This document shows positions 4,363-22,742 of a stretch of DNA of 51,350 bases, piece by piece. The DNA is from a virus (Duplodnaviria; Heunggongvirae; Uroviricota; Caudoviricetes). The stretch lies in IMG/VR virus record IMGVR_UViG_2690315831_000003; one strand, given 5' to 3'. The notes under the pieces are model-generated. The model saw nothing but the letters and a program-made list of their open reading frames with translations, had not been told where the DNA came from and did no database searches. A program made the translations under genes and the position numbers. Positions within the stretch are counted from its first letter, which is position 1; each line of letters begins with the position of its first letter.

Positions 4363-4539
4363 TATCGCGTCCTCAACAATGAATTTTGTGATGTGGTGCC
4401 TGGTGCCTCCAGGTGACGTTAACCAGTTAACAATTAACGCCGGATTGTTAGTTGATGTCTGTTACGCCAGTAAAAGACCGCTTGTTTTAACTGTTCCGCG
4501 TGCGCTTAGCCGCATTCACCGCATCACAAAATACACTTT

Positions 4540-4578
4540 AAAAATGGCGGATATCCATTTCCGCCGAATCACCAGAAA
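4540..4578 (-). ncRNA. dicF: DicF-like small RNA immediately upstream of dicB
   Basis: Minus-strand reads UUUCUGGUGAUUCGGCGGAAAUGGAUAUCCGCCAUUUUU: DicF-like 5' seed followed by stem-loop and U-run; downstream spacer also resembles the recalled dicF-dicB spacer. Confidence 0.5.
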
Positions 4579-4890
4579 AGTGATAACAGAGGTTGTTGTG
4601 GCGGTGTTGTCACTCAGGCGTATGGTCAACCTGACAACCCGGTGCATTTTCTGGAGCAATGGAGGAAGCCCCAGCCATACTTACCGCCGCGCCATTTCGC
4701 GGATTGCCACAACCGGAAGCGCACGATCGAATTACATTTAACGACAACATATACAGAGAGACTAACTTCGCCGAGCGCTTTCGTGTTGTGTGCCTGCTTT
4801 TAACCACGTCAGGCGAGGTGGACCTGTTATTCCCCAACAACAAGGAGCTTGTTAATCTGGATATCCCCAACAACAATAAGAGTATTGAAT

Positions 4891-5900: not shown

Positions 5901-5967
5901 AGGTAAAATATCAGGAGGGGATGAGAGGAGCATAAACCCGGAGGGAAGCTACCGGATTTATGCAGAT

Positions 5968-6387
5968 TCAGGAGGCTTTTTGTTTTTTCTTTCGCGCTAA
6001 TTCTTCATAAATTGCGTTGTACTTCTGTTTTTTCTCCTCAAGAGTTTTTAAAAGTTCATCAGTTTCACTGTCAGGGAGTTCATCAAGAAGTTCAATGATG
6101 ATTTTTTGCTTCGGACTTAACTCCTGATAGAAACGCAGGCTTCCGCTTTCTTCAGTGTCCTCCCCCAGAAGGTAAGTTGGTGTTGTTCCGATAAGTGCTG
6201 CCAATTCTTTCAGTTTCTCTCGACGGGGAATTGCCTCTCCATTAAACCATTTACTAACCGCTTTGGGTGTTAGCTTCATTCGACGGGCAATTTCTGCCTG
6301 CCTTCCGTGTTGTTCAAAGCCAGCATTTTCACAGGCTAGCGCAAGCCTGCTGGCGAACTCTTTACGCGCTTCATCTTCATGAACCAT
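5968..6387 (-). CDS. Prophage repressor, DicA-like (HTH only, no S24 peptidase domain)
   Basis: 139 aa; N-terminal HTH segment; C-terminal acidic LP-rich helix resembles recalled DicA C-terminus; divergent from cro-like gene. Confidence 0.8.
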   Translation of the reverse strand: MVHEDEARKEFASRLALACENAGFEQHGRQAEIARRMKLTPKAVSKWFNGEAIPRREKLKELAALIGTTPTYLLGEDTEESGSLRFYQELSPKQKIIIELLDELPDSETDELLKTLEEKKQKYNAIYEELARKKKQKAS

Positions 6388-6466: not shown

Positions 6467-6733
6467 ATGAGCCATACAACACTTGCAGATGTAATCAAAG
6501 CAGTTCGCGTTTCTGTTGTAGCCGATGTTTGCGGTGTCAGCCAAAGAGCAATCTACAAATGGATGAATAATGGAAAATTACCGCGCACAGAATATACAGG
6601 CGAAACAAATTACGCTGAAAAAATTGCTCTGGCATCAAACGGATTATTTTCTGCTGATGCGGTTTTGACTATTGGCAGGATTAAGCCTACAGCGAATGAA
6701 TCACTGGCGGTGAACAATGAAAATCACCCCTGA
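6467..6733 (+). CDS. Cro/DicC-like HTH regulator
   Basis: ATG at 6467 preceded by GAGGGTGA; HTH segment VCGVSQRAIYKWMNNGKLP; divergent from repressor. Confidence 0.7.
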   Translation: MSHTTLADVIKAVRVSVVADVCGVSQRAIYKWMNNGKLPRTEYTGETNYAEKIALASNGLFSADAVLTIGRIKPTANESLAVNNENHP

Positions 6734-7268
6734 ACAGGTTTGTGAGGCTCTGGATGCCTGGGTATGCCGACCAGGAATGACACAGGAGCAGGCGACGATA
6801 TTAATCACGGAAGCATTCTGGGCTCTGAAAGAACGCCCGAACATCGATGTTCAACGCGTCACGTTTAATGATGGCGAGGTTGATCAACGGGCGCTGGGCG
6901 TTAATCGAGTGAAGATATTCGAACGCTGGAAGGCTATCGACACCAGGGATAAGCGTGAAAAATTCACGGCGCTGATTCCGGCAATTATGGAGGCTATCCG
7001 GGTAAGTGATTTCAGGTTGTATTGTGAAATTACTGACGGAAAAAGCATTACGTACATGATCGCCGGGTTAAACAAAGAGTATGGCGATGTGGTGGAGTCC
7101 GGGCTGCTTTTTGCGGATCCAGTTGTTGTGGAACGTGAGACTGATGAGCTTATAGAAAAAGCCATTGCTTTCAAGCGTGCGTATCGTCAGCAATACCAAC
7201 ATTACTTTGCAGATAAACAAATATCTGTCTGGGGTTCGTATGAGTATCGATGCACTACGATGGGCTAA
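6717..7268 (+). CDS. Early protein in the CII/YdaT position, function uncertain
   Basis: 183-aa ORF overlapping cro-like stop; position between cro and replication genes. Confidence 0.5.
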   Translation: MKITPEQVCEALDAWVCRPGMTQEQATILITEAFWALKERPNIDVQRVTFNDGEVDQRALGVNRVKIFERWKAIDTRDKREKFTALIPAIMEAIRVSDFRLYCEITDGKSITYMIAGLNKEYGDVVESGLLFADPVVVERETDELIEKAIAFKRAYRQQYQHYFADKQISVWGSYEYRCTTMG

Positions 7269-8277
7269 AAAGGTGAAAACCGGCAGTTCATCCAGTAAGT
7301 CAGTATTGACCTGGCTTGCTGATATGTGCGGTGCCGATTTGTGCGCATACCCGTCTATATCTGCACTGGCAGAAGTAACGGAACTGAACAAAAAGACTGT
7401 GCAGGACAGTTTACGACACCTGATGGAGATTGGGTTAATTGTTGATACTGGTGAGAGAAAAGGCAGAACAAAGCAAATTGTGGTGTACCGACTTATCGGT
7501 GTAGAAGAAAGTGTTGCCGAGCCTGAATACACCCAAAAACGGGAGTCTTTAAAGGTGGGTAAAATTGGTACTGTTAATAAAAATAGTACCGAAAATGGTT
7601 ATGTTTCAGCACAAAACAGACCCAAAAACGGAACTCTTAGCTGCATGGAAAATAACCAAAGACACCCAAATTTTCCATCAAAGACACCCAAAAACGGATC
7701 ACGGAACCCAAAGGAACCCAAAGATCTAAACCCCACACATAACGCACGCGAGAGTGCTCCGACCAGTGAGCAGGAAGTTTTGTCGTTACAGGCAGCGCCC
7801 CCTGTATTCTTGGATGGCCTGAGCGAACCCATCGGGAAATTTTCGATGACTACTGTCTGGCAGCCGTCGCTGGATTTTCGACAACGGGCAGTAGTGTGGG
7901 GTATGGCTCTGCCTGAGCCGGAATTTACACCTGCTGAGCTTGCCGCATTCCGGGATTACTGGATGGCGGAGGGGAAGGTTTTCACGCAGGTTCAGTGGGA
8001 GCAGAAATTTGCCCGTCACGTGCAGCACGTCAGGGCACAGGTAAAACCAGTCAGCAAGGGGGTAAGCCATGCAGCATCAGGTGGCACGGCATCACGGGCA
8101 GTTCAGGAAATCCGGGCAGCACGCGAACAGTGGGAACGTGAAAACGGATTTATCAGCAACGGAAACGGCCTGGAAGCTGTGGGAGCTTATGGGGGAGGTG
8201 TATTCGAACCGCTGGACTCAGAAGAATGGGGCCGCACCTTCGAAGCTCTGGATTGCCCAGATTGGTGCGATGACTGA
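7240..8277 (+). CDS. Replication initiator, O-like (N-terminal winged-helix, iterons inside the gene)
   Basis: ATG at 7240 (MSIDALRWAKKV...) with GGGG upstream; iteron cluster within the coding sequence as for lambda O. Confidence 0.75.
   Translation: MSIDALRWAKKVKTGSSSSKSVLTWLADMCGADLCAYPSISALAEVTELNKKTVQDSLRHLMEIGLIVDTGERKGRTKQIVVYRLIGVEESVAEPEYTQKRESLKVGKIGTVNKNSTENGYVSAQNRPKNGTLSCMENNQRHPNFPSKTPKNGSRNPKEPKDLNPTHNARESAPTSEQEVLSLQAAPPVFLDGLSEPIGKFSMTTVWQPSLDFRQRAVVWGMALPEPEFTPAELAAFRDYWMAEGKVFTQVQWEQKFARHVQHVRAQVKPVSKGVSHAASGGTASRAVQEIRAAREQWERENGFISNGNGLEAVGAYGGGVFEPLDSEEWGRTFEALDCPDWCDD
7560..7730. repeat. Candidate replication origin: AT-rich palindrome plus ACCCAAA(AACGGA) iterons
   Basis: GGTACTgttaataaaaatAGTACC palindrome (about 7567-7590) followed by at least five ACCCAAA-containing repeats at about 7620, 7664, 7686, 7706, 7718. 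Confidence 0.55.
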
Positions 8278-8764: not shown

Positions 8765-9481
8765 ATGGAAACCGTATTTGACGCACTGAAAGCACTGAAA
8801 AGAGCCTCTTCACAGGTAGTGGCGGCCCGCCTTGGAATCAGCCGTGAAGATGCGGTCAACGAACTGTGGAAACTGAAGCGCCGTGGTGAAGCGGATAACA
8901 AGGGGTCGATGTGGTGGCTGACTCAGGCAGGTGAAAGTGAACCAGTGTCACCGGTACCGAAAGTGACAGCGCAAATGCTGACTGAGGCGATTGAACAACA
9001 TGGCCCACAAACGGCGGATGAGCTGGCACTTATGTTCGGGATTACCTCCCGCCGGGCGAATTCATCGCTGGCCATGGCAATCAGCAAAGGGCGTCTGATT
9101 CGCGTAAATCAGGGCGGTAAATTTCGTTACTGCATACCGGGCGCTGATTTACCGGCAGAGCCGGAAGCTGCATCCGTAGCGGAAACCGATGGTAAAGCCT
9201 TTCCTCAGCCAGCAGGTGTTGCGTTACCAGTCCAGGAAACGACGACACAGGAAGAAATGAAAACAGAAATCGTGGAAGACATTGTGAAGTTACAGCCATC
9301 GGTCACCGAAACGAAAGCAGATGACCTGATTCTACCATCGCTGCATGTGGCTAACCGCGAGCTGCGCCGGGCAAAAGGTCAGGTTCAGAAGTGGGAGCGA
9401 GTCTGCGCCGCGCTGCGGGAGCTGAACAAGTGCCGGGATATTCTCCGGGATATTACCGCCACCAGAGAACAGCAGCGGTGA
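8765..9481 (+). CDS. Hypothetical protein, possibly tandem winged-helix
   Basis: ATG 8765 preceded by GGAGG; acidic central linker. Confidence 0.55.
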
Positions 9482-9795
9482 GTGGGTGGAAGACGTGGTG
9501 CCGGGCTGAAATTCTGATACTCCGGCAGTGCGCGGGAACAATGAAGGTAAAAAGCATTGGCGCACTTATCGGACGAACTGAAGCGGCAGTGAGAACGAAG
9601 GCACGGGAGTTGGGCATCAGCATGATGTTACGTGGTGATTTTCACCCGTCGGCAAAATATTCTCAGCGTGATATTGAGCTGGCGCGGCAACTGCATCAGA
9701 GAGGCATGCAAAGAAGGGAAATTGCCAGAAAATTAGGCATGCCGCTGCGCATAGTGAATAACTACGTTTATTTCGACAGGAGGGTTCAGGCGTGA
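9478..9795 (+). CDS. Small HTH DNA-binding protein
   Basis: GTG start overlapping the upstream stop (GTGA coupling); two HTH-like segments ([14 protein letters not shown] and [12 protein letters not shown]). Confidence 0.5.
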
Positions 9796-13263: not shown

Positions 13264-13626
13264 ATGCTCATAGATTTGGTTTTACCTTACCCGCCGACGG
13301 TGAACACTTACTGGCGACGCCGTGGCAGCACATATTTTGTATCAAAAGCCGGGGAGCGTTATCGCCGGGCAGTGGTGCTTATTGTTCGCCAGCAGCGACT
13401 GAAATTAAGCCTGTCCGGACGGCTGGCAATAAAAATTATTGCAGAGCCGCCGGATAAGCGCCGCCGTGACCTGGACAATATTCTGAAAGCACCGCTGGAT
13501 GCGCTGACGCACGCGGGGTTGTTAATGGACGATGAGCAGTTTGATGAAATCAATATTGTACGTGGCAAGCCAGTATCTGGTGGACGGCTGGAGATAAGAA
13601 TTACAGAGGTGGGTGTGCATGAATAA
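13264..13626 (+). CDS. rusA: Holliday-junction resolvase RusA
   Basis: 120 aa; motifs PDKRRRDLDNILKAPLDAL and GGRLEIRITEVG match recalled RusA. Confidence 0.85.
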   Translation: MLIDLVLPYPPTVNTYWRRRGSTYFVSKAGERYRRAVVLIVRQQRLKLSLSGRLAIKIIAEPPDKRRRDLDNILKAPLDALTHAGLLMDDEQFDEINIVRGKPVSGGRLEIRITEVGVHE

Positions 13627-14284
13627 CCAGTATTTACAGTTTGTTCGTGAGCAACTCATGATTGCCACTGCGGATCTTAGTGGGTCGACAAAAGGCCAGC
13701 TGGAAGTCTGGCAGGAAAATGCCCTGTTCGATACAGGGCGTTACAGACGCAAAAAAATTCGTTACCGCGATGAGGTAACCGGAAAAATGATCACGCGGGA
13801 TAATCCCCCGATCCCGGGTAAACAATCACTGGCGAAAGGCTCATCAATTGCCCTGGTCAGTCCGGTTGAGTTTTCGACATCATCATGGCGACGCGCCGTT
13901 CTGTCTCTTGAAGAACATCATAAAGCCTGGCTGCTGTGGTGTTACAGCGGTAGCATTTGCTGGGAGCATCAGATCGCGATAACGCAGTGGGCGTGGACTG
14001 AATTTAATGCTCAATCCGGTACCAGAAAAATTGCAGGAAAAACTCTGGTGCGCCTGAAGACGTTGATCTGGTTGGCGGCGCAGGCGGTAAAAGCTGAGCT
14101 TTTTGGTGGGGAAGGTTACGAATACCAGGAACTGGCGTTACTGGTGGGAGTAACAACCAAAAACTGGTCCAAGACATTTACTGGTCACTGGGTTGCAATG
14201 AAACACATTTTTCATCGGCTGGATAGTGAAGCTTTATTGTTGGTGGAGGGAACACGTTCAAAACAAAAGGCGGCATTTTCATAG
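13619..14284 (+). CDS. Late-gene antiterminator, Q-like
   Basis: Follows rusA and directly precedes a strong promoter plus intrinsic terminator pair (pR'/tR' architecture); Qin-like gene order. Confidence 0.6.
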   Translation: MNNQYLQFVREQLMIATADLSGSTKGQLEVWQENALFDTGRYRRKKIRYRDEVTGKMITRDNPPIPGKQSLAKGSSIALVSPVEFSTSSWRRAVLSLEEHHKAWLLWCYSGSICWEHQIAITQWAWTEFNAQSGTRKIAGKTLVRLKTLIWLAAQAVKAELFGGEGYEYQELALLVGVTTKNWSKTFTGHWVAMKHIFHRLDSEALLLVEGTRSKQKAAFS

Positions 14285-14537: not shown

Positions 14538-15251
14538 ATGGATGACAGTGCTCTGCTCAGAAACTCTTCACTTTTTGTTGCTTATATGGGCTGTCTCGGA
14601 TGGGGGAGCGCTTATTTCTATGGATGGGGTACTTCATTTTACTATGGCTTTCCATGGTGGGTTGTCGGGGCTGGTGTCGATGATGTAGCACGAAGTTTGT
14701 TTTATGCTGTGACAGTTATTGTTATATTCCTTATTGGATGGGGAGTTGGTATTGTTTTCTTTTTGGGCATAAAACAAAAGCGCAATATACAAAATTTGAG
14801 TTTTATCCGGCTTTTTCTCGCGATATTGCTGCTTTTTATTCCACCTGTTCTGGAGTTTTCTGTAATTCATCAGCATGTTGAGCCAGATGTACTGATTTTC
14901 TGCGTTCTTGCTGCCTTTGCAATCACGCTTTTTGTCAGGTCTGGAAGAAGACTTGTTTCAGTCAAATGTTTTTCGGAAATGTCTGTTATTCGCCATCACC
15001 GAATTGAGTTCATGATGGCTGGGTTTATGATTTATTTCTGGGCATTCTCTCTTATTGCCGGTTGGTACAAACCACAGTTTAAGAGGGAATATCAGGCGGT
15101 CCACTATGAGAATGTATGGTATTACATTATTGCGCGCTATGATGATCGTCTGGTGTTATCGAAATCATACAGGAGTGGGGGTAAGAAATTCGTTATATTT
15201 AATAGCGGAAATATTAATGATTTTGAAATTAATATTGTCAGAGTACGTTAA
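14538..15251 (+). CDS. Hypothetical polytopic membrane protein (late-region cargo, low GC)
   Basis: 237-aa ORF in AT-rich DNA; aromatic-rich hydrophobic segments (FYGWGTSFYYGFPWWVVGAG and others). Confidence 0.5.
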   Translation: MDDSALLRNSSLFVAYMGCLGWGSAYFYGWGTSFYYGFPWWVVGAGVDDVARSLFYAVTVIVIFLIGWGVGIVFFLGIKQKRNIQNLSFIRLFLAILLLFIPPVLEFSVIHQHVEPDVLIFCVLAAFAITLFVRSGRRLVSVKCFSEMSVIRHHRIEFMMAGFMIYFWAFSLIAGWYKPQFKREYQAVHYENVWYYIIARYDDRLVLSKSYRSGGKKFVIFNSGNINDFEINIVRVR

Positions 15252-15772: not shown

Positions 15773-16831
15773 ATGTTTAATACTGTAAAAATATCCAGTT
15801 GTGAGTTAATCAACGCTGACTGCCTGGAATTTATCCGGTCGTTACCCGAAAATTCTGTTGACCTGATAGTCACGGACCCGCCGTACTTTAAAGTGAAGCC
15901 TGAGGGCTGGGATAACCAGTGGAAGGGCGACGATGACTACCTGAAGTGGCTGGACCTGTGTCTGGCGCAGTTCTGGCGGGTGCTGAAACCTGCCGGAAGT
16001 CTTTACCTGTTCTGTGGCCATCGCCTGGCATCTGACATTGAAATCATGATGCGTGAACGCTTCAGTGTGCTGAACCATATTATCTGGGCAAAGCCGTCCG
16101 GACGCTGGAACGGGTGCAACAAGGAAAGCCTGCGGGCGTATTTCCCCGCCACAGAGCGCATTCTGTTCGCGGAACATTATCAGGGGCCGTATCGCCCGAA
16201 AGATGCCGGGTATGAGGCGAAGGGCAGGGCACTGAAACAGCATGTGATGGCCCCGCTGATTTCTTACTTTCGTGATGCGCGTGCTGCCCTGGGGATAACG
16301 GCAAAACAGATAGTGGATGCCACAGGAAAGAAAAACATGGTGTCGCACTGGTTCAGTGCCAGTCAGTGGCAGCTACCGAACGAAAGCGATTATCTGAAAT
16401 TACAGGCGCTGTTTGCCCGGGTGGCAGAAGAGAAGCATCAGCGGGGGGAACTGGAGAAGCCCCACCACCAGCTGCTGGAGACGTATACTTCACTGAACCG
16501 GCAGTATGCGGAACTGCAGAGTGAATATAAGCATCTGCGGCGGTATTTTGGCGTGACGGCGCAGGTGCCGTACACGGATGTGTGGACGCATAAACCGGTG
16601 CAGTACTATCCCGGGAAACATCCGTGCGAAAAACCGGCAGAAATGCTGCAGCAGATAATCAGCGCGAGCAGTCGTCCGGGTGACCTGGTTGCAGATTTTT
16701 TCATGGGGTCGGGTTCGACAGTCAAAGCCGCGATGGCGCTGGGGCGGCGTGCTACAGGCGTTGAGCTGGAGACTGAACGTTTTGAGCAGACGGTCAGGGA
16801 AGTTCAGGATTTAGTCAGTCAGAACGGATGA
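15773..16831 (+). CDS. Orphan DNA methyltransferase (N6-adenine or N4-cytosine, beta-class)
   Basis: DPPY motif near N-terminus (VTDPPYF) and FxGxG motif near C-terminus (FFMGSGST); no adjacent restriction endonuclease gene. Confidence 0.85.
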   Translation: MFNTVKISSCELINADCLEFIRSLPENSVDLIVTDPPYFKVKPEGWDNQWKGDDDYLKWLDLCLAQFWRVLKPAGSLYLFCGHRLASDIEIMMRERFSVLNHIIWAKPSGRWNGCNKESLRAYFPATERILFAEHYQGPYRPKDAGYEAKGRALKQHVMAPLISYFRDARAALGITAKQIVDATGKKNMVSHWFSASQWQLPNESDYLKLQALFARVAEEKHQRGELEKPHHQLLETYTSLNRQYAELQSEYKHLRRYFGVTAQVPYTDVWTHKPVQYYPGKHPCEKPAEMLQQIISASSRPGDLVADFFMGSGSTVKAAMALGRRATGVELETERFEQTVREVQDLVSQNG

Positions 16832-16871: not shown

Positions 16872-16947
16872 GGCCCTTTAGCTCAGTGGTGAGAGCGAGC
16901 GACTCATAATCGCCAGGTCGCTGGTTCAAATCCAGCAAGGGCCACCA
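16872..16947 (+). tRNA. tRNA with CAU anticodon (Ile2/ileX-like or Met)
   Basis: Cloverleaf folded by hand: acceptor GGCCCTT/AAGGGCC, D-arm GCTC-AGTGGTGA-GAGC, anticodon loop CTCATAA, T-loop TTCAAAT, 3' CCA. Confidence 0.85.
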
Positions 16948-16956
16948 TATCACATA

Positions 16957-17033
16957 CCGCCATTAGCTCATCGGGATAGAGCGCCAGCCTTCGAAGCTGG
17001 CTGCGCGGGGTTCGAGTCCTCGATGGCGGTCCA
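16957..17033 (+). tRNA. tRNA-Arg (UCG anticodon)
   Basis: Acceptor CCGCCAT/ATGGCGG, anticodon stem CCAGC/GCTGG with loop CTTCGAA, T-loop TTCGAGT, 3' CCA; unusual C1-G72. Confidence 0.75.
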
Positions 17034-17311
17034 TTATCTGCATTATGCGTTGTTGGTTCTGATGAGTGAATCATTGTCTTTTGAGCAACAGGCTATCATA
17101 TAAGATAGCCTCAGACTTCCTTGTTTATTCTCGCCGGATGCTTCGTAGATATTTGCAGGCATCTGTATGCAGGGGTATTATTGCGGCATATATCATCCGG
17201 AAAAATAAAAACTACATGCTGATCCGGAGATGATAGTTACAAGTCCTCCCGGATCCCGCATATTTACTATATTTTATAGATAATTGTTCTTGTTAATATG
17301 GAGATGGATAA

Positions 17312-17740
17312 ATGTATTGCCGTGCTGTACCGGTTCTTGTTTTGATATTAGCCAGTCTGACAACTGGCTGCACAAAAGATGTATCGACAAATAATTATGA
17401 TGCTTCTCTGTATCACTCAGATAAATTAATAAAGTCGCAAAATTTGAGCTCATCGGAACGTACCCCTGATGCCAGTGAAGAAATCCGGCAGTATGCCATT
17501 CAGGTCAGGAAAGCCATAGAAGAACAGTTAAAGGATGCGAGTAAGTATTCAGGAAAAGAGTGTTCACTGAGAATGTATATGGCCCCGAATGGTCTTCTGC
17601 TACAGGTTAAAAGAGAAAGCGGTGATCCCGATTTATGTCGTGAAGCGATGAATGCAGTAAAGAATGCTGATATACCATCACCACCGTCTTCAGGAGTATA
17701 TAAAGCATTTAGAAATGGCGTGCTGGATTTTAAACTCTGA
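17312..17740 (+). CDS. Lipoprotein with TolA C-terminal (domain III)-like domain
   Basis: Signal peptide plus lipobox LTTGC; C-terminal SKYSGKECSLRMYMAPNGLLLQVKRESGDPDLCREAMNAVKNADIPSPPSSGVYKAFRNGVLDFKL parallels recalled E. coli TolA III; AT-rich context. Confidence 0.7.
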   Translation: MYCRAVPVLVLILASLTTGCTKDVSTNNYDASLYHSDKLIKSQNLSSSERTPDASEEIRQYAIQVRKAIEEQLKDASKYSGKECSLRMYMAPNGLLLQVKRESGDPDLCREAMNAVKNADIPSPPSSGVYKAFRNGVLDFKL

Positions 17741-17877
17741 CAGGGGGAGAAGATTTTCTCCTGTCCTGATGATTTTGGGGCGCTGGAAAGATATTGTGCT
17801 GTGAAGTGTTAAATCCCTCACAATTCAGTAAGTTGACAGTTGCCTGTCAGACTGAGCATTTGTTAAAAAAATTTCGC

Positions 17878-18053
17878 ATGGTGAATCCCCCTGTGCGGAG
17901 GGGCGACTGGTGAACGGTATGATCTCTTTGATGATCGTAAGCGAGAATACGCGGGTTTGGTGTCACCGGGCTGAACTCACCGGGAGGCACCCGGCACCAT
18001 GCTCATGGTGATACAGAAATGCGGCTTCAGCCCCTCTCCGGAGGGGCTTTCTT
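17878..18053 (+). ncRNA. Putative sRNA, repeat unit A
   Basis: Promoter TTGCCT (17840-17845) / TAAAAA (17864-17869); terminator GCCCCTCTCCGGAGGGGC + T-run at 18030-18052; ORFs across the unit not conserved. Confidence 0.4.
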
Positions 18054-18060
18054 ATGGACA

Positions 18061-18128: not shown

Positions 18129-18210
18129 TGGCGAATAATACCCTACAGTAATCACTCTGCGCAATAGCGTGGCCTTTTTCGAATTGCGGGCTGTAGTCTC
18201 CCTTCTGCCG

Positions 18211-18372
18211 GGTGTCCTGGTTGCAGATTTCTTCATGTGGTAGGGTTCGGCAGTTAAAGCAGCGATGGCGCTGGGGCGTCGTGCAACTGGCGTTGAGCTG
18301 GATACCGGGCGTTTTGAACAGACTGCGCAGGAAATCAGGGATGTATTTAGCGGGAGCGGTTTGCAGAAGTAA
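18211..18372 (+). pseudogene. Duplicated 3' fragment of the methyltransferase gene
   Basis: About 160 bp homologous to 16679-16831 (MTase C-terminus), with an in-frame stop and no start. Confidence 0.6.
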
Positions 18373-18435: not shown

Positions 18436-19161
18436 ATGGATGTTGCCTGCTCTGTGGTCCTGATTCGCTATCCGATAGATATTTTTCTTGAAAAAGAAAA
18501 AGTTTCACTCGATGCCGGAAGTGTTATGCTTGTTGCCAGAAATATAAGAGGGCTTTTCTGTGCTTATGCCGACAGAGTGAAAATGGCAGATATAAGTAAC
18601 AGCGTCGTCAATCAGTATCTGGAAAGGGAGTGTGAACTGACGGAGTATACACCGACAAAAATGCCTCTTTATTTGATGTCTGATATTTACAATACGGAAC
18701 TGGCGGAGGCTTTAATAACCCGGCATAGTGAATCCAGTGATACTTTGAAGGATTTCTCTGTTATAACCGCATTTTCATGTATCTCCTTATTTGCAACAGA
18801 CAGACGTCTGCCATTATTTTTGTCCGGTGCTGTAAATAATATCAGCTGTAAAGTAAGGGCTATAATTCAGACCGACATATCGGCAGGCTGGATGCTTGGT
18901 GTGATTGCATTACAATTGCATATGAGCGAAAGCTTGTTGAAGCGAAAACTTAAGGATGAAGGTTATAGCTTTAGTCGGTTGTTGCTGGAGGAGCGAATGC
19001 GTGTTGCTGTTAATCTTGTATGTTTCCAGCGAGAGTGTGGACAAGCGATAGCGGAAAAATGTGGTTACTCAAGTAAGTCCTACTTCATTTCTGTATTTCA
19101 CCAGTATTATGGTGCACCACCTGAGAGCTATGCATATTTGCAGAAAGCAGACGTTATCTGA
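18436..19161 (+). CDS. AraC/XylS-family transcriptional regulator (cargo)
   Basis: 241 aa; C-terminal dual-HTH AraC signature region; AT-rich locus. Confidence 0.7.
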   Translation: MDVACSVVLIRYPIDIFLEKEKVSLDAGSVMLVARNIRGLFCAYADRVKMADISNSVVNQYLERECELTEYTPTKMPLYLMSDIYNTELAEALITRHSESSDTLKDFSVITAFSCISLFATDRRLPLFLSGAVNNISCKVRAIIQTDISAGWMLGVIALQLHMSESLLKRKLKDEGYSFSRLLLEERMRVAVNLVCFQRECGQAIAEKCGYSSKSYFISVFHQYYGAPPESYAYLQKADVI

Positions 19162-19529: not shown

Positions 19530-19852
19530 AACATATCCTGTATATTTATGTTGTTACATACAGGCGCTTTTAGTATCTGCCGCACGGCAGTTGTACTTCA
19601 GAATAAGATGCTTTTGTGACTGGTGGTGTTGTATCTGGGGTTAGCCAGTAGGCAGGTTCAGAGAGTCCGGTGGTAATTATGTGTATGCAGTGGTTGTTGC
19701 TGTACCGTGGGCAAGTTCTGGAACTGGCTTCGTCCATTGTAGATGATTGTTAGCTGGATATCAGTTACCTCATGGAAATGTTAAATGACTCACAATTCGG
19801 TTGATGGGCTATTGTCTGATCGATGGAAGTCTTGTAAAAACGAGCCAGCATA

Positions 19853-20012
19853 GTGAATCCCCCTGTGCGGAGGGGCGTCTGACATGGTCTCCATAGCGAT
19901 GGTCACAATACGCAGATTCAGTAGTCAGGCTGAATCTACCGGGAGGCACCCGGCACTATGCTGCTTATGGTGTATACATAGCGATCGGCCCCTCTCCGGA
20001 GGGGCTTTTTTT
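19853..20012 (+). ncRNA. Putative sRNA, repeat unit B
   Basis: Same conserved 5' and 3' blocks, divergent middle; terminator 19988-20012. Confidence 0.4.
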
Positions 20013-20111
20013 GTGCGGGAAAAGGCTGTGTTGTTAAGTGTTAAATTCCTCACAGTTCAGATGGTTGATGCTTGCCTGTCTGAGGGGGAGTTGTTAAAAA
20101 AGTTCTGCATG

Positions 20112-20282
20112 GTGAATCCCCCTGTGCGGAGGGGCGACTGGTGTGATTTGCATCTTTTCTGTTGTAGGCAATGCAAACGCGGGTTCAGGGACACCAGACT
20201 GGACTCACCGGGAGGCACCCGGCACCATGTTCATGATGATACAGATACGCAGTGTCAGCCCCTCTCCTGAGGGGCTTTTTTA
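20112..20282 (+). ncRNA. Putative sRNA, repeat unit C
   Basis: Near-identical to unit A over the first ~35 nt and the 3' hairpins; terminator 20258-20282. Confidence 0.4.
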
Positions 20283-20381
20283 TGCAGGAAAAACGCTGTG
20301 TTGTGAAATGTTAAATTCCTCACAGTTCAGATGGTTGATGCTTGCCTGTCTTACGGGGAGTTGTTAAAAAAGTTCTGCATG

Positions 20382-20544
20382 GTGAATCCCCCTGAGCGGA
20401 GGGGCATATCAGCGCAGGTGTTTCTACTCTATCCTTTCTGTGCGGGTTCAGGTGCTGATACTGAACTCACCGGGAGGCACCCGGCACCATGCAGTATACA
20501 GAGATTAGGCATACATCCAGGCTCCTCATCGCAGGAGCCTTTTT
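20382..20544 (+). ncRNA. Putative sRNA, repeat unit D
   Basis: Conserved 5' box and internal hairpin; different terminator GGCTCCTcatcgcAGGAGCC + T5. Confidence 0.35.
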
Positions 20545-20550
20545 ACATGT

Positions 20551-20777: not shown

Positions 20778-22742
20778 ATGGCATTTAAACACTACGATGT
20801 GGTCAGGGCGGCATCGCCGTCAGACCTTGCTGAACGACTGACACAAAAACTGAAGGAGGGCTGGCAGCCATTTGGCAGTCCGGTGGCCATCACGCCTTAT
20901 ACCCTGATGCAGGCCATTGCGGCGGAAGGTGATGTCACCACACCAGTGGCGGTGACCGGTAATGAGGGTAAGGCGGTGGCTGTCAGTGCCACCAGCGACC
21001 CGGAGTATTACTTTGTTGTGGTTCTGGCAGGGCAGTCAAATGGCATGTCGTATGGTGAAGGTCTTCCGCTGCCGGAGACATATGACCGTCCGGACCCGCG
21101 CATTAAGCAGCTGGCGCGCCGCAGTACGGTGACACCGGGCGGTGCAGCATGCAAATATAACGACATCATTCCGGCGGACCATTGTCTGCATGATGTGCAG
21201 GACATGAGCCGCCTTAACCATCCGAAAGCGGACCTGTCAAAGGGGCAGTACGGTACCGTGGGGCAGGGGCTGCATATCGCCAAAAAACTGCTGCCGTTTA
21301 TACCGGCGAATGCGGGTATTCTGCTGGTTCCGTGCTGTCGTGGTGGTTCAGCGTTCACCACCGGAGCTGATGGCACATACAGTGACGCTGGCGGTGCCTC
21401 GGAGAATTCAGCGCGCTGGGGTGTGGACAAGCCGCTGTATAAGGACCTTATCGGTCGAACAAAAGCAGCACTGAAGAAGAACCCGAAAAATGTGCTGTTT
21501 ACCGTGGTGTGGATGCAGGGGGAATTTGATTTTGACGGCACGCCCGGAAATCACGCAGCACAGTTTGGTGCGCTGGTTGATAAATTCCGTGCAGACCTGA
21601 CGGATATGGCAGGTCAGTGCGTTGGTGGCTCTGCTGGCGGTGTTCCCTGGATATGCGGGGACACGACGTATTTCTGGAAGCAGAAGAACGAATCCACGTA
21701 CCAGACGGTGTACGGCAGCTATAAAAACAAAACGGAAAAGAATATCCATTTCGTACCGTTCATGACGGATGAGAACGGGGTGAATGTGCCGACGAACAAA
21801 CCGGAAGAAGACCCGGACATTCCGGGTATCGGGTATTACGGTTCGAAATGGCGTGACAGCTCAGCCACCTGGACGTCACAGGACAGGGCGAGCCATTTCA
21901 GCACCTGGGCACGCCGGGGGATTATTTCCGACCGTCTGGCAACGGCGATTCTGGTGCACGCCGGGAGAACCGCTGAATTCATTACCGGAAAACAGCCTGA
22001 TATGGTGAAGCCCACCGTACCTTCCGGTGAAGGTCCGGAGAGAGAGGCGGAAGCCCCGGTCAGTAACCGAACCCTGATGAGTCTGCTGGCATCCGGCGAA
22101 GACCTGGCATCACAGGGCTGGCGCTATTATCACAAACCGGCGGGCGGAGACAGTGTTAACAAAAACATTGCTGAAGCGGTGGTCAGTGATGCGGGGGCTA
22201 CGGGAGGTAAGGCCCTGCAACTGAACAAACCGGAAAACCACATCTGGTTTCTGGAGCATGATGCAGCCGGACAGGGGGCGGAGTTACTGAAGAAGGGCGG
22301 ACGTGTGAGCGTACGGTTTAAGTTGCCGGGTTCACTGGTGCCGAATCAGTTTGCCCTGGGCATTTACTGGCAGTTGTCGTCCCTGCCGGAGGGGGTGACG
22401 CTGTCAGGAGAAGGTAACGATATGCTGATGTCTTTCTTCCTGCAGACGGATACGACGAACCTGAACGCGATGCATCACAGGAAGCCGAATGCGAAGCTGG
22501 ATACATTCGGGGTCTTTGATAACGGATGGCACACGCTGGCTTTTGAGTTTGCCGGAAACAACAGCATTCAGGTGACACCAGTACTGGATGAGAAACGGGG
22601 AGCGGCGTTCACACTGGTGAAGTCACCGGCATCGGGGGCGGCGGACAAACTGCAACTGACCGATATATCAAAATCGGCGACGTATACGCTGCTGATTGAC
22701 AGCATTGCGGTGGAAGTGAACAGCACAGACACTGCGGCATGA
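20778..22742 (+). CDS. nanS: Prophage 9-O-acetyl-sialate esterase NanS-p-like (SGNH hydrolase)
   Basis: 654 aa; GQSN motif in VVLAGQSNGMSYGEG; same location relative to the stx site as the NanS-p gene of Stx phages. Confidence 0.7.
   Translation: MAFKHYDVVRAASPSDLAERLTQKLKEGWQPFGSPVAITPYTLMQAIAAEGDVTTPVAVTGNEGKAVAVSATSDPEYYFVVVLAGQSNGMSYGEGLPLPETYDRPDPRIKQLARRSTVTPGGAACKYNDIIPADHCLHDVQDMSRLNHPKADLSKGQYGTVGQGLHIAKKLLPFIPANAGILLVPCCRGGSAFTTGADGTYSDAGGASENSARWGVDKPLYKDLIGRTKAALKKNPKNVLFTVVWMQGEFDFDGTPGNHAAQFGALVDKFRADLTDMAGQCVGGSAGGVPWICGDTTYFWKQKNESTYQTVYGSYKNKTEKNIHFVPFMTDENGVNVPTNKPEEDPDIPGIGYYGSKWRDSSATWTSQDRASHFSTWARRGIISDRLATAILVHAGRTAEFITGKQPDMVKPTVPSGEGPEREAEAPVSNRTLMSLLASGEDLASQGWRYYHKPAGGDSVNKNIAEAVVSDAGATGGKALQLNKPENHIWFLEHDAAGQGAELLKKGGRVSVRFKLPGSLVPNQFALGIYWQLSSLPEGVTLSGEGNDMLMSFFLQTDTTNLNAMHHRKPNAKLDTFGVFDNGWHTLAFEFAGNNSIQVTPVLDEKRGAAFTLVKSPASGAADKLQLTDISKSATYTLLIDSIAVEVNSTDTAA

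Follow-up and report, generated by a model that had tools for sequence, protein, structure and literature searches.

Location of the gene in the prophage

The window analysed here, i.e. the whole stretch of 51,350 nucleotides recorded in IMG/VR as IMGVR_UViG_2690315831_000003, is a lambda-like prophage. Between the antiterminator gene and the lysis genes it carries the gene of a small lipoprotein whose C-terminal part resembles domain III of TolA (Table 1).

Table 1. Features of the TolA-like gene and its surroundings, in window positions
Feature	Position	Strand	Basis or remark
DUF968, RusA, antiterminator Q	13613-14284		upstream of the TolA-like gene
237-aa ORF, no family match			between Q and the methyltransferase
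N6/N4 DNA methyltransferase	15773-16831		
tRNA pair: CAU-anticodon ileZ type and tRNA-Arg UCG	16872..17033	+	ARAGORN, Rfam
Conserved AT-rich upstream island TATTTTATAGATAATTG	17270..17286	+	kept between the class I and the 70%-identical class III locus
Shine-Dalgarno GGAG, 8 nt 5' of the ATG	17300..17303	+	direct reading; common to class I and class III loci
TolA III-like lipoprotein CDS, 142 aa	17312..17740, stop codon included	+	ORF list; ATG start
Signal peptide with lipobox (LTTG, then C), residues 1-20	17312..17371	+	direct reading; Cys20 predicted lipidated
Linker, residues 21-52, predicted disordered tether (~32 aa)	17372..17467	+	AF2 pLDDT
TolA III domain, residues 53-142	17468..17737	+	AF2 secondary structure, Foldseek, residue map to TolA 333-421
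STnc100-family sRNA copy with terminator hairpin	17847..18059	+	Rfam RF02076, 172 bits; directly 3' of the gene
nanS-p-like SASA esterase	20778-22742		downstream of the TolA-like gene

The two tRNAs lie individually at 16872-16947 and 16957-17033 according to ARAGORN, and the block that they form shares 99% identity with ileZ/argN in 933W, in VT2-Sakai and in over 200 further Stx phages. In the Stx2 phages 933W and Sakai these tRNAs are followed by stx2AB and, in 933W, then by a YjhS (NanS-p) homologue. Since 933W displays the same tRNAs, then stx2AB, then the NanS-p homologue, the TolA-like gene occupies the stx slot. A preliminary description of this DNA had assigned the gene to that position, in AT-rich DNA just after the tRNA pair, and both points are confirmed: the gene starts 279 nt past tRNA-Arg, and the GC content is 37-44% across it versus 50-57% in the methyltransferase and tRNA DNA.

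Beyond the STnc100 copy, whose terminator-like hairpin spans 18029-18048, comes a degenerate duplicate (~135 nt) of the methyltransferase 3' end and, further downstream, an AraC-type regulator as well as three other STnc100 copies. The esterase is followed by holin, lysozyme and lysis genes, as judged by homology to the near-identical RM10466 prophage. The gene therefore has the location of stx-slot cargo, 3' of Q and of the ileZ/argN tRNAs, 5' of nanS-p and the lysis genes, with a deviant base composition. Its description as cargo of a lambdoid prophage, coding in the stx slot for a lipoprotein with a TolA III module, is fully supported.

Around the gene itself, the upstream spacer has mostly diverged between class I and class III loci (two of the allele classes presented below), and the TATTTTATAGATAATTG island is among the few blocks conserved. 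This island is possibly the -10 or the operator of a gene-specific promoter; a promoter proper to the TolA III-like lipoprotein gene is only weakly suggested. A consensus scan also gave a weak promoter-like site at 17152-17181, in a region that is no richer in such sites than shuffled sequence. A hairpin without canonical T-run is found 3' of the stop codon.

A lipobox, a tether and a folded domain

The preliminary description had attributed to the 142-aa ORF a signal peptide and a lipobox (LTTGC); the coordinates proved exact and the direct reading fits the rule. We used a PROSITE-type rule: a positive n-region, an uncharged h-region, the motif [LVI..][AST..][GAS]C, and the Cys at 15-35. The N-terminus, MYCRAVPVLVLILASLTTGC, has R4 in the n-region, uncharged residues at 10-15 and L-T-T-G-C at 16-20; in other words the leader, MYCRAVPVLVLILASLTTG followed by C, combines a positive n-region, an uncharged hydrophobic core (VLILAS) and a lipobox Cys at position 20, and the protein conforms to the rule by direct reading. 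In E. coli the residue after the lipobox Cys decides the sorting by Lol (+2 rule), and the Thr found at +2 predicts the export of this lipoprotein to the outer membrane via Lol.

The AF2 model, whose input was an alignment of 13 family members, gives a pLDDT below 50 over residues 1-51 and of 76-94 over residues 52-142. The product is a secreted-type protein made of a lipobox, a flexible tether of ~32 residues and a fully folded TolA domain III.

Membership in the TolA_C family

The 142-aa protein belongs to the TolA_C domain family, and all the features tested agree on this point. The Pfam profile PF06519 (TolA_C) matched with 81.4 bits and E=5.7e-23, for a curated gathering threshold of 25 bits, and positions 7-96 of its 96 are covered. 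By phmmer, residues 54-141 matched the E. coli TolA III entries of the PDB (1S62, 3QDP, 2X9A, 1TOL) with E ~1e-25, as well as recent TolQRA cryo-EM entries. The identity to E. coli TolA 333-421 is 45/89, ~51%.

The structural comparison leads to the same family. By Foldseek, the AF2 model matched 3QDR, 2X9A, 3QDP and 1TOL with E from 1e-9 to 1e-11; the TM (target) was 0.81-0.90 on the isolated-domain chains 3QDR, 2X9A and 3QDP, versus 0.52 on the fusion chain of 1TOL; with 3QDR and 2X9A it was 0.86-0.90, at an rmsd of 0.9-1.6 Å, and overall the rmsd of the superposition on TolA III crystal structures ranged from 0.9 to 2.1 Å. The model displays the alpha/beta TolA III fold, a three-stranded sheet packed on helices, in the order helix, two strands, helix, PxPP loop, helix and C-terminal beta3 strand GVLDFK. 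The disulfide pair C363/C388 of TolA corresponds here to C84 and C109, both invariant in the prophage family. Thus the C-terminal ~85 residues, which the preliminary description said to run parallel to TolA III, do so significantly (E=5.7e-23 for PF06519, ~1e-25 in the PDB); the TolA sequence quoted there agrees with the real one, and the comparison by HMM and by structure suggested at that time is significant on both sides, profile and AF2/Foldseek.

An extra gene under the name of TolA

This kinship has consequences for annotation. From the NCBIfam TolA equivalogs, only the C-terminal parts were matched, 297-386 of 387 for NF007065 and 266-361 of 362 for TIGR02794. The score with NF007065 was 103 for a cutoff of 213; with TIGR02794 it was 75.9 for a cutoff of 59.45, which the C-terminal domain passes alone, and this probably explains the label 'tolA' given by PGAP. 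The N-terminal transmembrane domain I that couples TolA to TolQR is absent from the 142-aa protein, as is the long helical domain II. Its gene belongs to the late region of a prophage, not to a ybgC-tolQRAB-pal-cpoB operon; a host genome with the same prophage keeps this operon, intact, elsewhere, so that the TolA-like lipoprotein is an extra copy.

Because it has neither domains I and II nor the operon context, and fails the stricter equivalog, the TolA-like lipoprotein is not a TolA. By naming it 'TolA', PGAP over-annotates it; the current database name, 'cell envelope integrity protein TolA', misleads and gives hundreds of genomes a false second 'tolA' gene. The protein matched PHROG 5772 ('unknown function') with E=1e-57, and a structural search of BFVD returned no viral TolA III-like model. 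Full-text literature searches yielded no functional study of the protein or of any family member, the mentions of the family being incidental annotation only (PMC6854850; PMC10269471). The 'tolA' expression in O157 described in PMC2948877 was discarded as evidence: it concerns the host gene and is uninformative. The protein presents a known receptor domain in a new architecture, mobile and predicted to be lipid-anchored, which is already in the databases, mis-named and uncharacterised.

Distribution and maintenance in E. coli prophages

Among 5,426 complete genomes of E. coli, 125 have a near-identical copy of the gene, these being for the most part non-O157 STEC and bovine strains, and ~770 more have a sister allele, ~81% identical. 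Either allele is thus carried by 895-897 genomes, ~16%. When the DNA of the domain was compared by blastn to the same 5,426 genomes, 897 matched, every match being at prophage copies; no DNA similarity to chromosomal tolA was detected by this search. The TolA-like gene is not peculiar to this prophage and belongs to a large, old family borne by mobile elements.

Three allele classes are distinguished, with 66-70% protein identity between them. They use two unrelated signal peptides, MYCRAVPVLVLILASLTTGC and MGFRSASILTLIISGIIIGC, both with the lipobox Cys at residue 20, and Cys20 is invariant in the 13 E. coli prophage alleles bearing these two leader types. IMG/VR contains 125 viral contigs with the gene, of which 80 loci were retrieved for the survey of intactness, dN/dS and context; the only cultured-phage record with the gene is mEp460. 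Every one of the 80 loci has an intact 429-nt CDS, with 17 distinct alleles overall, and dN/dS among these alleles is 0.23-0.38 in the domain, 0.37-0.89 in the linker and 0.23-0.44 for the whole gene. The TolA III domain copy is selectively maintained.

These data bear on the explanation that the gene is debris, a fragment of host tolA left by an aberrant excision and joined by chance, in frame, to a hydrophobic leader. PGAP does call the gene 'tolA', and broken copies do exist: a Rac-like prophage, for example, has a pseudogene, and the proteins P0037, P0038 and P0021 are truncated or frameshifted; the lipobox Cys is nevertheless invariant across a deep family, and we consider this origin very improbable. 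A recent capture or pseudogene of host tolA was rejected on the lack of blastn match to chromosomal tolA, the ~51% protein identity, the 80/80 intact copies and a dN/dS below 0.4 in the domain.

All 80 viral loci show the gene on the late strand, with an antiterminator, of one of three types, on one side and the lysis cassette on the other. In class I loci the tRNA block is always at about -440 nt, and an STnc100 copy is present 3' of the allele in every locus with sequence beyond the gene. In class II the gene is always followed by the gene of a second, very divergent TolA III lipoprotein, then by the holin. This second paralog (hereafter paralog B), with a leader ending in FVAGC and a beta3 strand GFDMRG, is carried by mEp460 and Rac-like prophages.

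Relatives on plasmids and chromosomes

The family extends beyond E. coli prophages. When 1.84 billion cluster representatives were searched exhaustively with HMMER, 303 matches were obtained; the best 149 of these, the query's own cluster excluded, include 70 short proteins (105-170 aa) and 63 long ones. A lipobox is found in at least 43 of the 70 short, TolA III-only representatives versus 2 of the 63 long, TolA-like proteins. Alignment of 20 diverse relatives (28-72% identity) shows no change at the lipobox Cys, at either disulfide Cys, in the GD motif or at F140, and Y61, K82, Y130, N135 and L138 are almost as constant. Named members come from Serratia, Kosakonia, Klebsiella michiganensis, Pseudescherichia and Dryocola, and were all automatically named 'cell envelope integrity protein TolA'.

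By tblastn, distant relatives were found on 1,328 enterobacterial plasmids, 672 of Klebsiella and 549 of Escherichia; 506 of the 1,328 are conjugative (~38%) and 438 mobilizable. Three plasmid relatives were inspected and all three have a lipobox. On a CloDF13-like plasmid of ~10 kb the relative lies near a colicin-E3-like toxin/immunity/lysis operon, on an IncFII Klebsiella plasmid it adjoins a thioredoxin-fold protein, and the leading region of pO157 contains an ortholog of the paralog B of mEp460-type prophages. A 'TolB family protein' is said, in PMC10269471, to accompany a plasmid TolA-like gene; we did not find it at the homolog inspected. As for chromosomes, the Kosakonia copy is located between icd and dinI-like genes and may be a prophage remnant, and the K. 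michiganensis copy resides in an ordinary chromosomal context.

The ligand-binding surface

The residues that TolA III uses to contact its ligands can be followed in the prophage protein by subtracting 279 from the TolA numbering. According to PMC4339652 and PMC7391070, g3p-N1, ColN and the TolB N-terminus each add a strand to beta3 of TolA (A415-K420), using backbone hydrogen bonds of D418 and K420, and the changes D418P and K420P abolish the beta3 contacts. Here beta3 reads GVLDFK, and L138, D139, F140 and K141, the equivalents of L417, D418, F419 and K420, do not vary within the prophage family. The equivalents of F412 and Y340 are invariant as well, and I337 is also kept.

The ColA site, on the opposite face of TolA, is formed by 375-LLDIKP-380 together with K368, K379 and K396, K368 being the partner of the essential Tyr58 of ColA (PMC3365938). 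The corresponding strand reads LLQVKR; K379 and K396 are kept, K368 is changed to Y, H or N, D377 to Q or E, and P380 to R. At the tyrosine implicated in TolB binding, Y352 in Walburger's work (Y353 in the numbering used here), the prophage family has K, G or R. Finally, the face made by helix 1 and beta2 has diverged from TolA and varies between alleles, at positions 59, 60, 63, 74, 89 and 98. The site for TolB, g3p and ColN thus looks preserved, and the ColA site with part of helix 1 looks remodelled and allele-variable. As the ColA contact site is partly altered, the protection conferred, if any, could be unequal across TolA ligands.

The divergence and allelic variation of the helix 1 and beta2 face might also mean that the domain has a different ligand, the TolA/TonB-like fold being a generic adaptor for beta-augmentation. 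It would then bind another periplasmic or outer-membrane protein, a tailed-phage ejection protein, CpoB or Pal, and would modulate host physiology (stress tolerance, vesicles, biofilm) or exclude tailed phages. Paralog B of mEp460 and Rac-like prophages, of which pO157 has the ortholog, goes in this direction, since with a beta3 strand GFDMRG and not LDFK it cannot simply copy TolA. On the other hand, the best-conserved elements of the surface are precisely those that TolA uses for its known ligands, and the neighbours (tRNAs, sRNA, AraC-type regulator) suggest no alternative partner. We find such a different ligand unlikely for the protein studied here.

Possible function of the tethered domain

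The reading that we favour, tentatively and a little short of calling it probable, is that the tethered TolA III is a decoy conferring tolerance to group A colicins and resistance to filamentous phages. Through its lipid anchor the domain would sit beneath the outer membrane, where the ligands arrive. Unconnected to the TolQR motor, the tethered domain would offer the beta-strand-augmentation surface of the genuine TolA and might therefore capture ligands that must reach TolA for their uptake, at the place where they emerge from porins or pili: the g3p N1 of the filamentous phages Ff, If1 and IKe, the TolA boxes in group A colicins, among them ColN, and the N-terminus of TolB, which TolB-dependent colicins need. 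A capture without motor would be a dead end, giving the carrier tolerance of group A bacteriocins together with resistance to filamentous phages, and the gene would be a superinfection-exclusion or competition cargo, to the benefit of the lysogen or of the plasmid host.

Such a function is plausible with regard to the invariant beta3, the kept cysteines, the lipid anchor, the relatives outside lysis and the precedent of periplasmic TolA III. Concerning the latter, Levengood-Freyermuth in 1993 reportedly observed that periplasmic TolA III raised the tolerance to colicins E1, E2, E3 and A, and not to the TonB-dependent colicin D. In favour of the decoy are also the lipoprotein architecture, which is kept with both disulfide cysteines across the divergent signal peptides and the 20 relatives, and the 80/80 intact copies with a domain dN/dS of 0.23-0.38. 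Conjugative pili are the primary receptors of the TolA-dependent filamentous phages, and the relatives on plasmids and in ordinary chromosomal contexts imply that the function must pay off in living carriers, outside lysis. The affinities for TolA III, ~1 µM for ColN versus ~40 µM for TolB according to PMC4339652 and PMC7391070, lead in the same direction: a modest level of decoy could trap the invaders while Tol-Pal would be spared. We thus favour the decoy because the affinities favour the binding of invaders over that of TolB, because the relatives act in living cells, and because ~38% of the plasmids are conjugative.

Several observations speak against it. In 80/80 viral loci the gene is part of the Q-dependent late operon, just 5' of the lysis genes, so that its strongest expression is predicted during lytic growth, when exclusion matters least. 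The ColA site is altered and the Tyr implicated in TolB binding is replaced; by binding in this way the protein would also compete for TolB, with possible harm to the host; and no defence model of PADLOC-DB 2.0 matched the TolA-like lipoprotein or paralog B at E<=0.01.

The protein could alternatively be a dominant-negative loosener of the envelope, expressed late: the TolA III domain would titrate the TolB N-terminus and block the deposition of Pal, and the resulting leaky or vesiculating outer membrane would aid the release of phages, or that of colicins in the case of bacteriocin plasmids. TolB-Pal, too, is at the outer membrane. The strongest argument here is the invariable location between antiterminator and holin, on the late strand and in three Q backgrounds, taken jointly with the homolog beside the colicin toxin/immunity/lysis operon of the CloDF13-like plasmid. 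Moreover, export of TolA III to the periplasm is reported to perturb the envelope, and biotechnology makes use of periplasmic TolA III to free proteins from the periplasm (PMC6195910, citing Wan & Baneyx 1998 and Levengood-Freyermuth 1993 for the perturbation); the variants D418P and K420P of TolA lose TolB binding and cause a tol phenotype, which indicates that the envelope is sensitive to this contact (PMC4339652). However, these phages have a holin, an endolysin and Rz-type lysis proteins of their own, and the relatives on large conjugative or low-copy plasmids or in ordinary chromosomal contexts have no lysis step, a leaky envelope being costly there. The weak affinity between TolA and TolB (~40 µM, PMC7391070) and the non-conservation of the TolB-implicated Tyr do not help this explanation either, and we hold it for doubtful.

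It is conceivable, though we would not rely on it, that mobile elements of Enterobacterales (lambdoid prophages, bacteriocin and conjugative plasmids) have repeatedly spread putative TolA III decoys tethered to the outer membrane. This would be an unrecognised and widespread way to a broad tolerance of group A bacteriocins and filamentous phages, by mimicry of a receptor in the periplasm and not by blocking of a receptor or by immunity, and the mEp460 and Rac-like lineages would bear two divergent decoys in tandem, for different ligands.

Significance

TolA III is the shared gateway of group A colicins, klebicins, cloacins and filamentous phages. If the decoy function is true, its presence in about one in six complete E. 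coli genomes, with distant relatives on over a thousand plasmids of Klebsiella and E. coli, would make it a hidden determinant of the susceptibility to bacteriocins and phages, which would matter for colicin and klebicin therapeutics, for phage-display hosts and for competition in the gut. The mimicry of a receptor in the periplasm would then be a new principle in superinfection exclusion. If the envelope is loosened instead, the gene would be a new accessory factor of lysis or release, exactly at the site of Stx release.

Comparison with known systems

The closest known domain is E. coli TolA III itself (1TOL, 1S62, 3QDP/3QDR, 2X9A; PF06519), with which the prophage protein shares the fold, the Cys363-Cys388 pair, the PxPP loop and the LDFK beta3. 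It differs from TolA by the absence of domain II and of domain I with its SHLS motif for TolQR coupling, by the predicted lipid anchoring at the opposite membrane, and by the altered ColA face. The prophage TolA III cannot transduce force.

The nearest functional analogues may be lipoproteins of superinfection exclusion. Cor of phages phi80, HK022 and N15 inactivates FhuA. So does Llp of T5, an outer-membrane lipoprotein of superinfection exclusion (bioRxiv 10.64898/2026.03.26.714494). Their likeness to the prophage protein concerns only the lipoprotein architecture and the proposed role: they are unrelated in sequence, and they plug a host receptor, whereas the prophage protein would mimic a receptor domain and titrate the invader.

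The engineered periplasmic TolA III is also a free domain uncoupled from TolQR, and its phenotypes fit both the decoy and the loosening of the envelope. It is however artificial, soluble, overexpressed and identical to that of the host, whereas the prophage protein is predicted to be lipid-tethered, is 49% diverged and is under its own selection. Finally, the plasmid TolA III lipoproteins (CloDF13-like, IncFII Klebsiella, pO157) have in common with it the lipobox, the short linker, the TolA III domain and the mis-annotation; they are 27-37% identical to it, reside on other replicons and are equally uncharacterised.

TolA III lipoproteins outside the window

Class II alleles of the TolA-like gene, as in mEp460 and a Rac-like prophage, are accompanied by another TolA III lipoprotein, which is highly divergent (leader ...FVAGC, a linker with four extra cysteines, C-terminus GFDMRG). 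The order is constant: class II allele, second lipoprotein, holin. As two different TolA III lipoproteins stand in tandem, this suggests that they differ in target. The ortholog on pO157 lies in the leading region, 3' of psiB, psiA and hok.

On pKPN361-3, a CloDF13-like ColRNAI plasmid of 10,060 bp, a TolA III lipoprotein gene and a bacteriocin/immunity/lysis operon, whose bacteriocin is a colicin-E3-like tRNase, point away from each other, the gene lying some 850 nt upstream of the operon; small plasmids of this kind make up about one third of the plasmid matches in the sampled subset. There the lipoprotein may lower self-uptake of the Tol-dependent bacteriocin, or else help its release.

In RefSeq, PGAP gives the symbol "tolA" and the product "cell envelope integrity protein TolA" to a protein of 120-160 aa in hundreds of genomes, of E. 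coli, Klebsiella, Kosakonia and Serratia. This naming is a systematic over-annotation, probably because the C-terminal domain alone passes the TIGR02794 cutoff (75.9 bits against 59.45).

Features of the window and of related loci
Feature	Sequence	Coordinates	Strand	Remark
Hydrophobic ORF, 237 aa	window	14538-15251	+	directly 3' of Q
tRNA block	window	16872-17033		compared with 933W 4533-4784
STnc100-family sRNA, copy 1	window	17847-18059	+	Rfam RF02076
Degenerate duplicate, methyltransferase gene 3' end	window	~18205-18340	+	versus 16675-16810
AraC-family regulator, 241 aa	window	18436-19161	+	HTH_18 and HTH_AraC, C-terminal
STnc100-family sRNA, copy 2	window	19819-20014	+	Rfam RF02076
STnc100-family sRNA, copy 3	window	20078-20287	+	Rfam RF02076
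STnc100-family sRNA, copy 4	window	20349-20550	+	Rfam RF02076
Second TolA III lipoprotein, divergent	mEp460	6512-6907		
Second TolA III lipoprotein, divergent	Rac-like prophage	7533-7907		
Ortholog of second lipoprotein	pO157	5947-6378		
TolA III lipoprotein gene	K. pneumoniae pKPN361-3	9350-9721		
Short PGAP "tolA" (example)	NZ_CP028381.1	1545079-1545507		

Surroundings of the TolA-like gene

The four STnc100 copies (120-172 bits), each ending in a GC-rich hairpin and a T-run, are scattered from the TolA-like gene to the nanS-p-like esterase gene, possibly as prophage sRNA or anti-sRNA arrays. One copy lies 3' of the class I allele in every viral locus that reaches past the TolA-like gene.

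The AraC-family regulator, which probably resembles the AraC-like regulators that EHEC prophages encode (PatE/Psr type), is a second cargo gene of the slot, in AT-rich DNA. The 237-aa ORF, also AT-rich (38-42% GC), is a further uncharacterised cargo gene of the late region: it had no match in Pfam or PADLOC, its RM10466 counterpart is labelled "hypothetical", and its strongly hydrophobic product is probably a multi-pass membrane protein.

Beyond the tRNA/TolA-like/STnc100 block comes a degenerate repeat of the final ~135 nt of the DNA methyltransferase gene, identical to it in most aligned columns and annotated as a methyltransferase pseudogene in RM10466. This looks like a recombination scar, left when a methyltransferase-tRNA-TolA-like cassette inserted upstream of an older methyltransferase-AraC junction.

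As in Stx phages, one tRNA is of the ileZ type, with a CAU anticodon and labelled tRNA-Met by ARAGORN, and the other is of the argN type. However, 933W carries a third, argO (AGA/AGG), which the window lacks, and homology between the two stops within ~20 nt 3' of argN.
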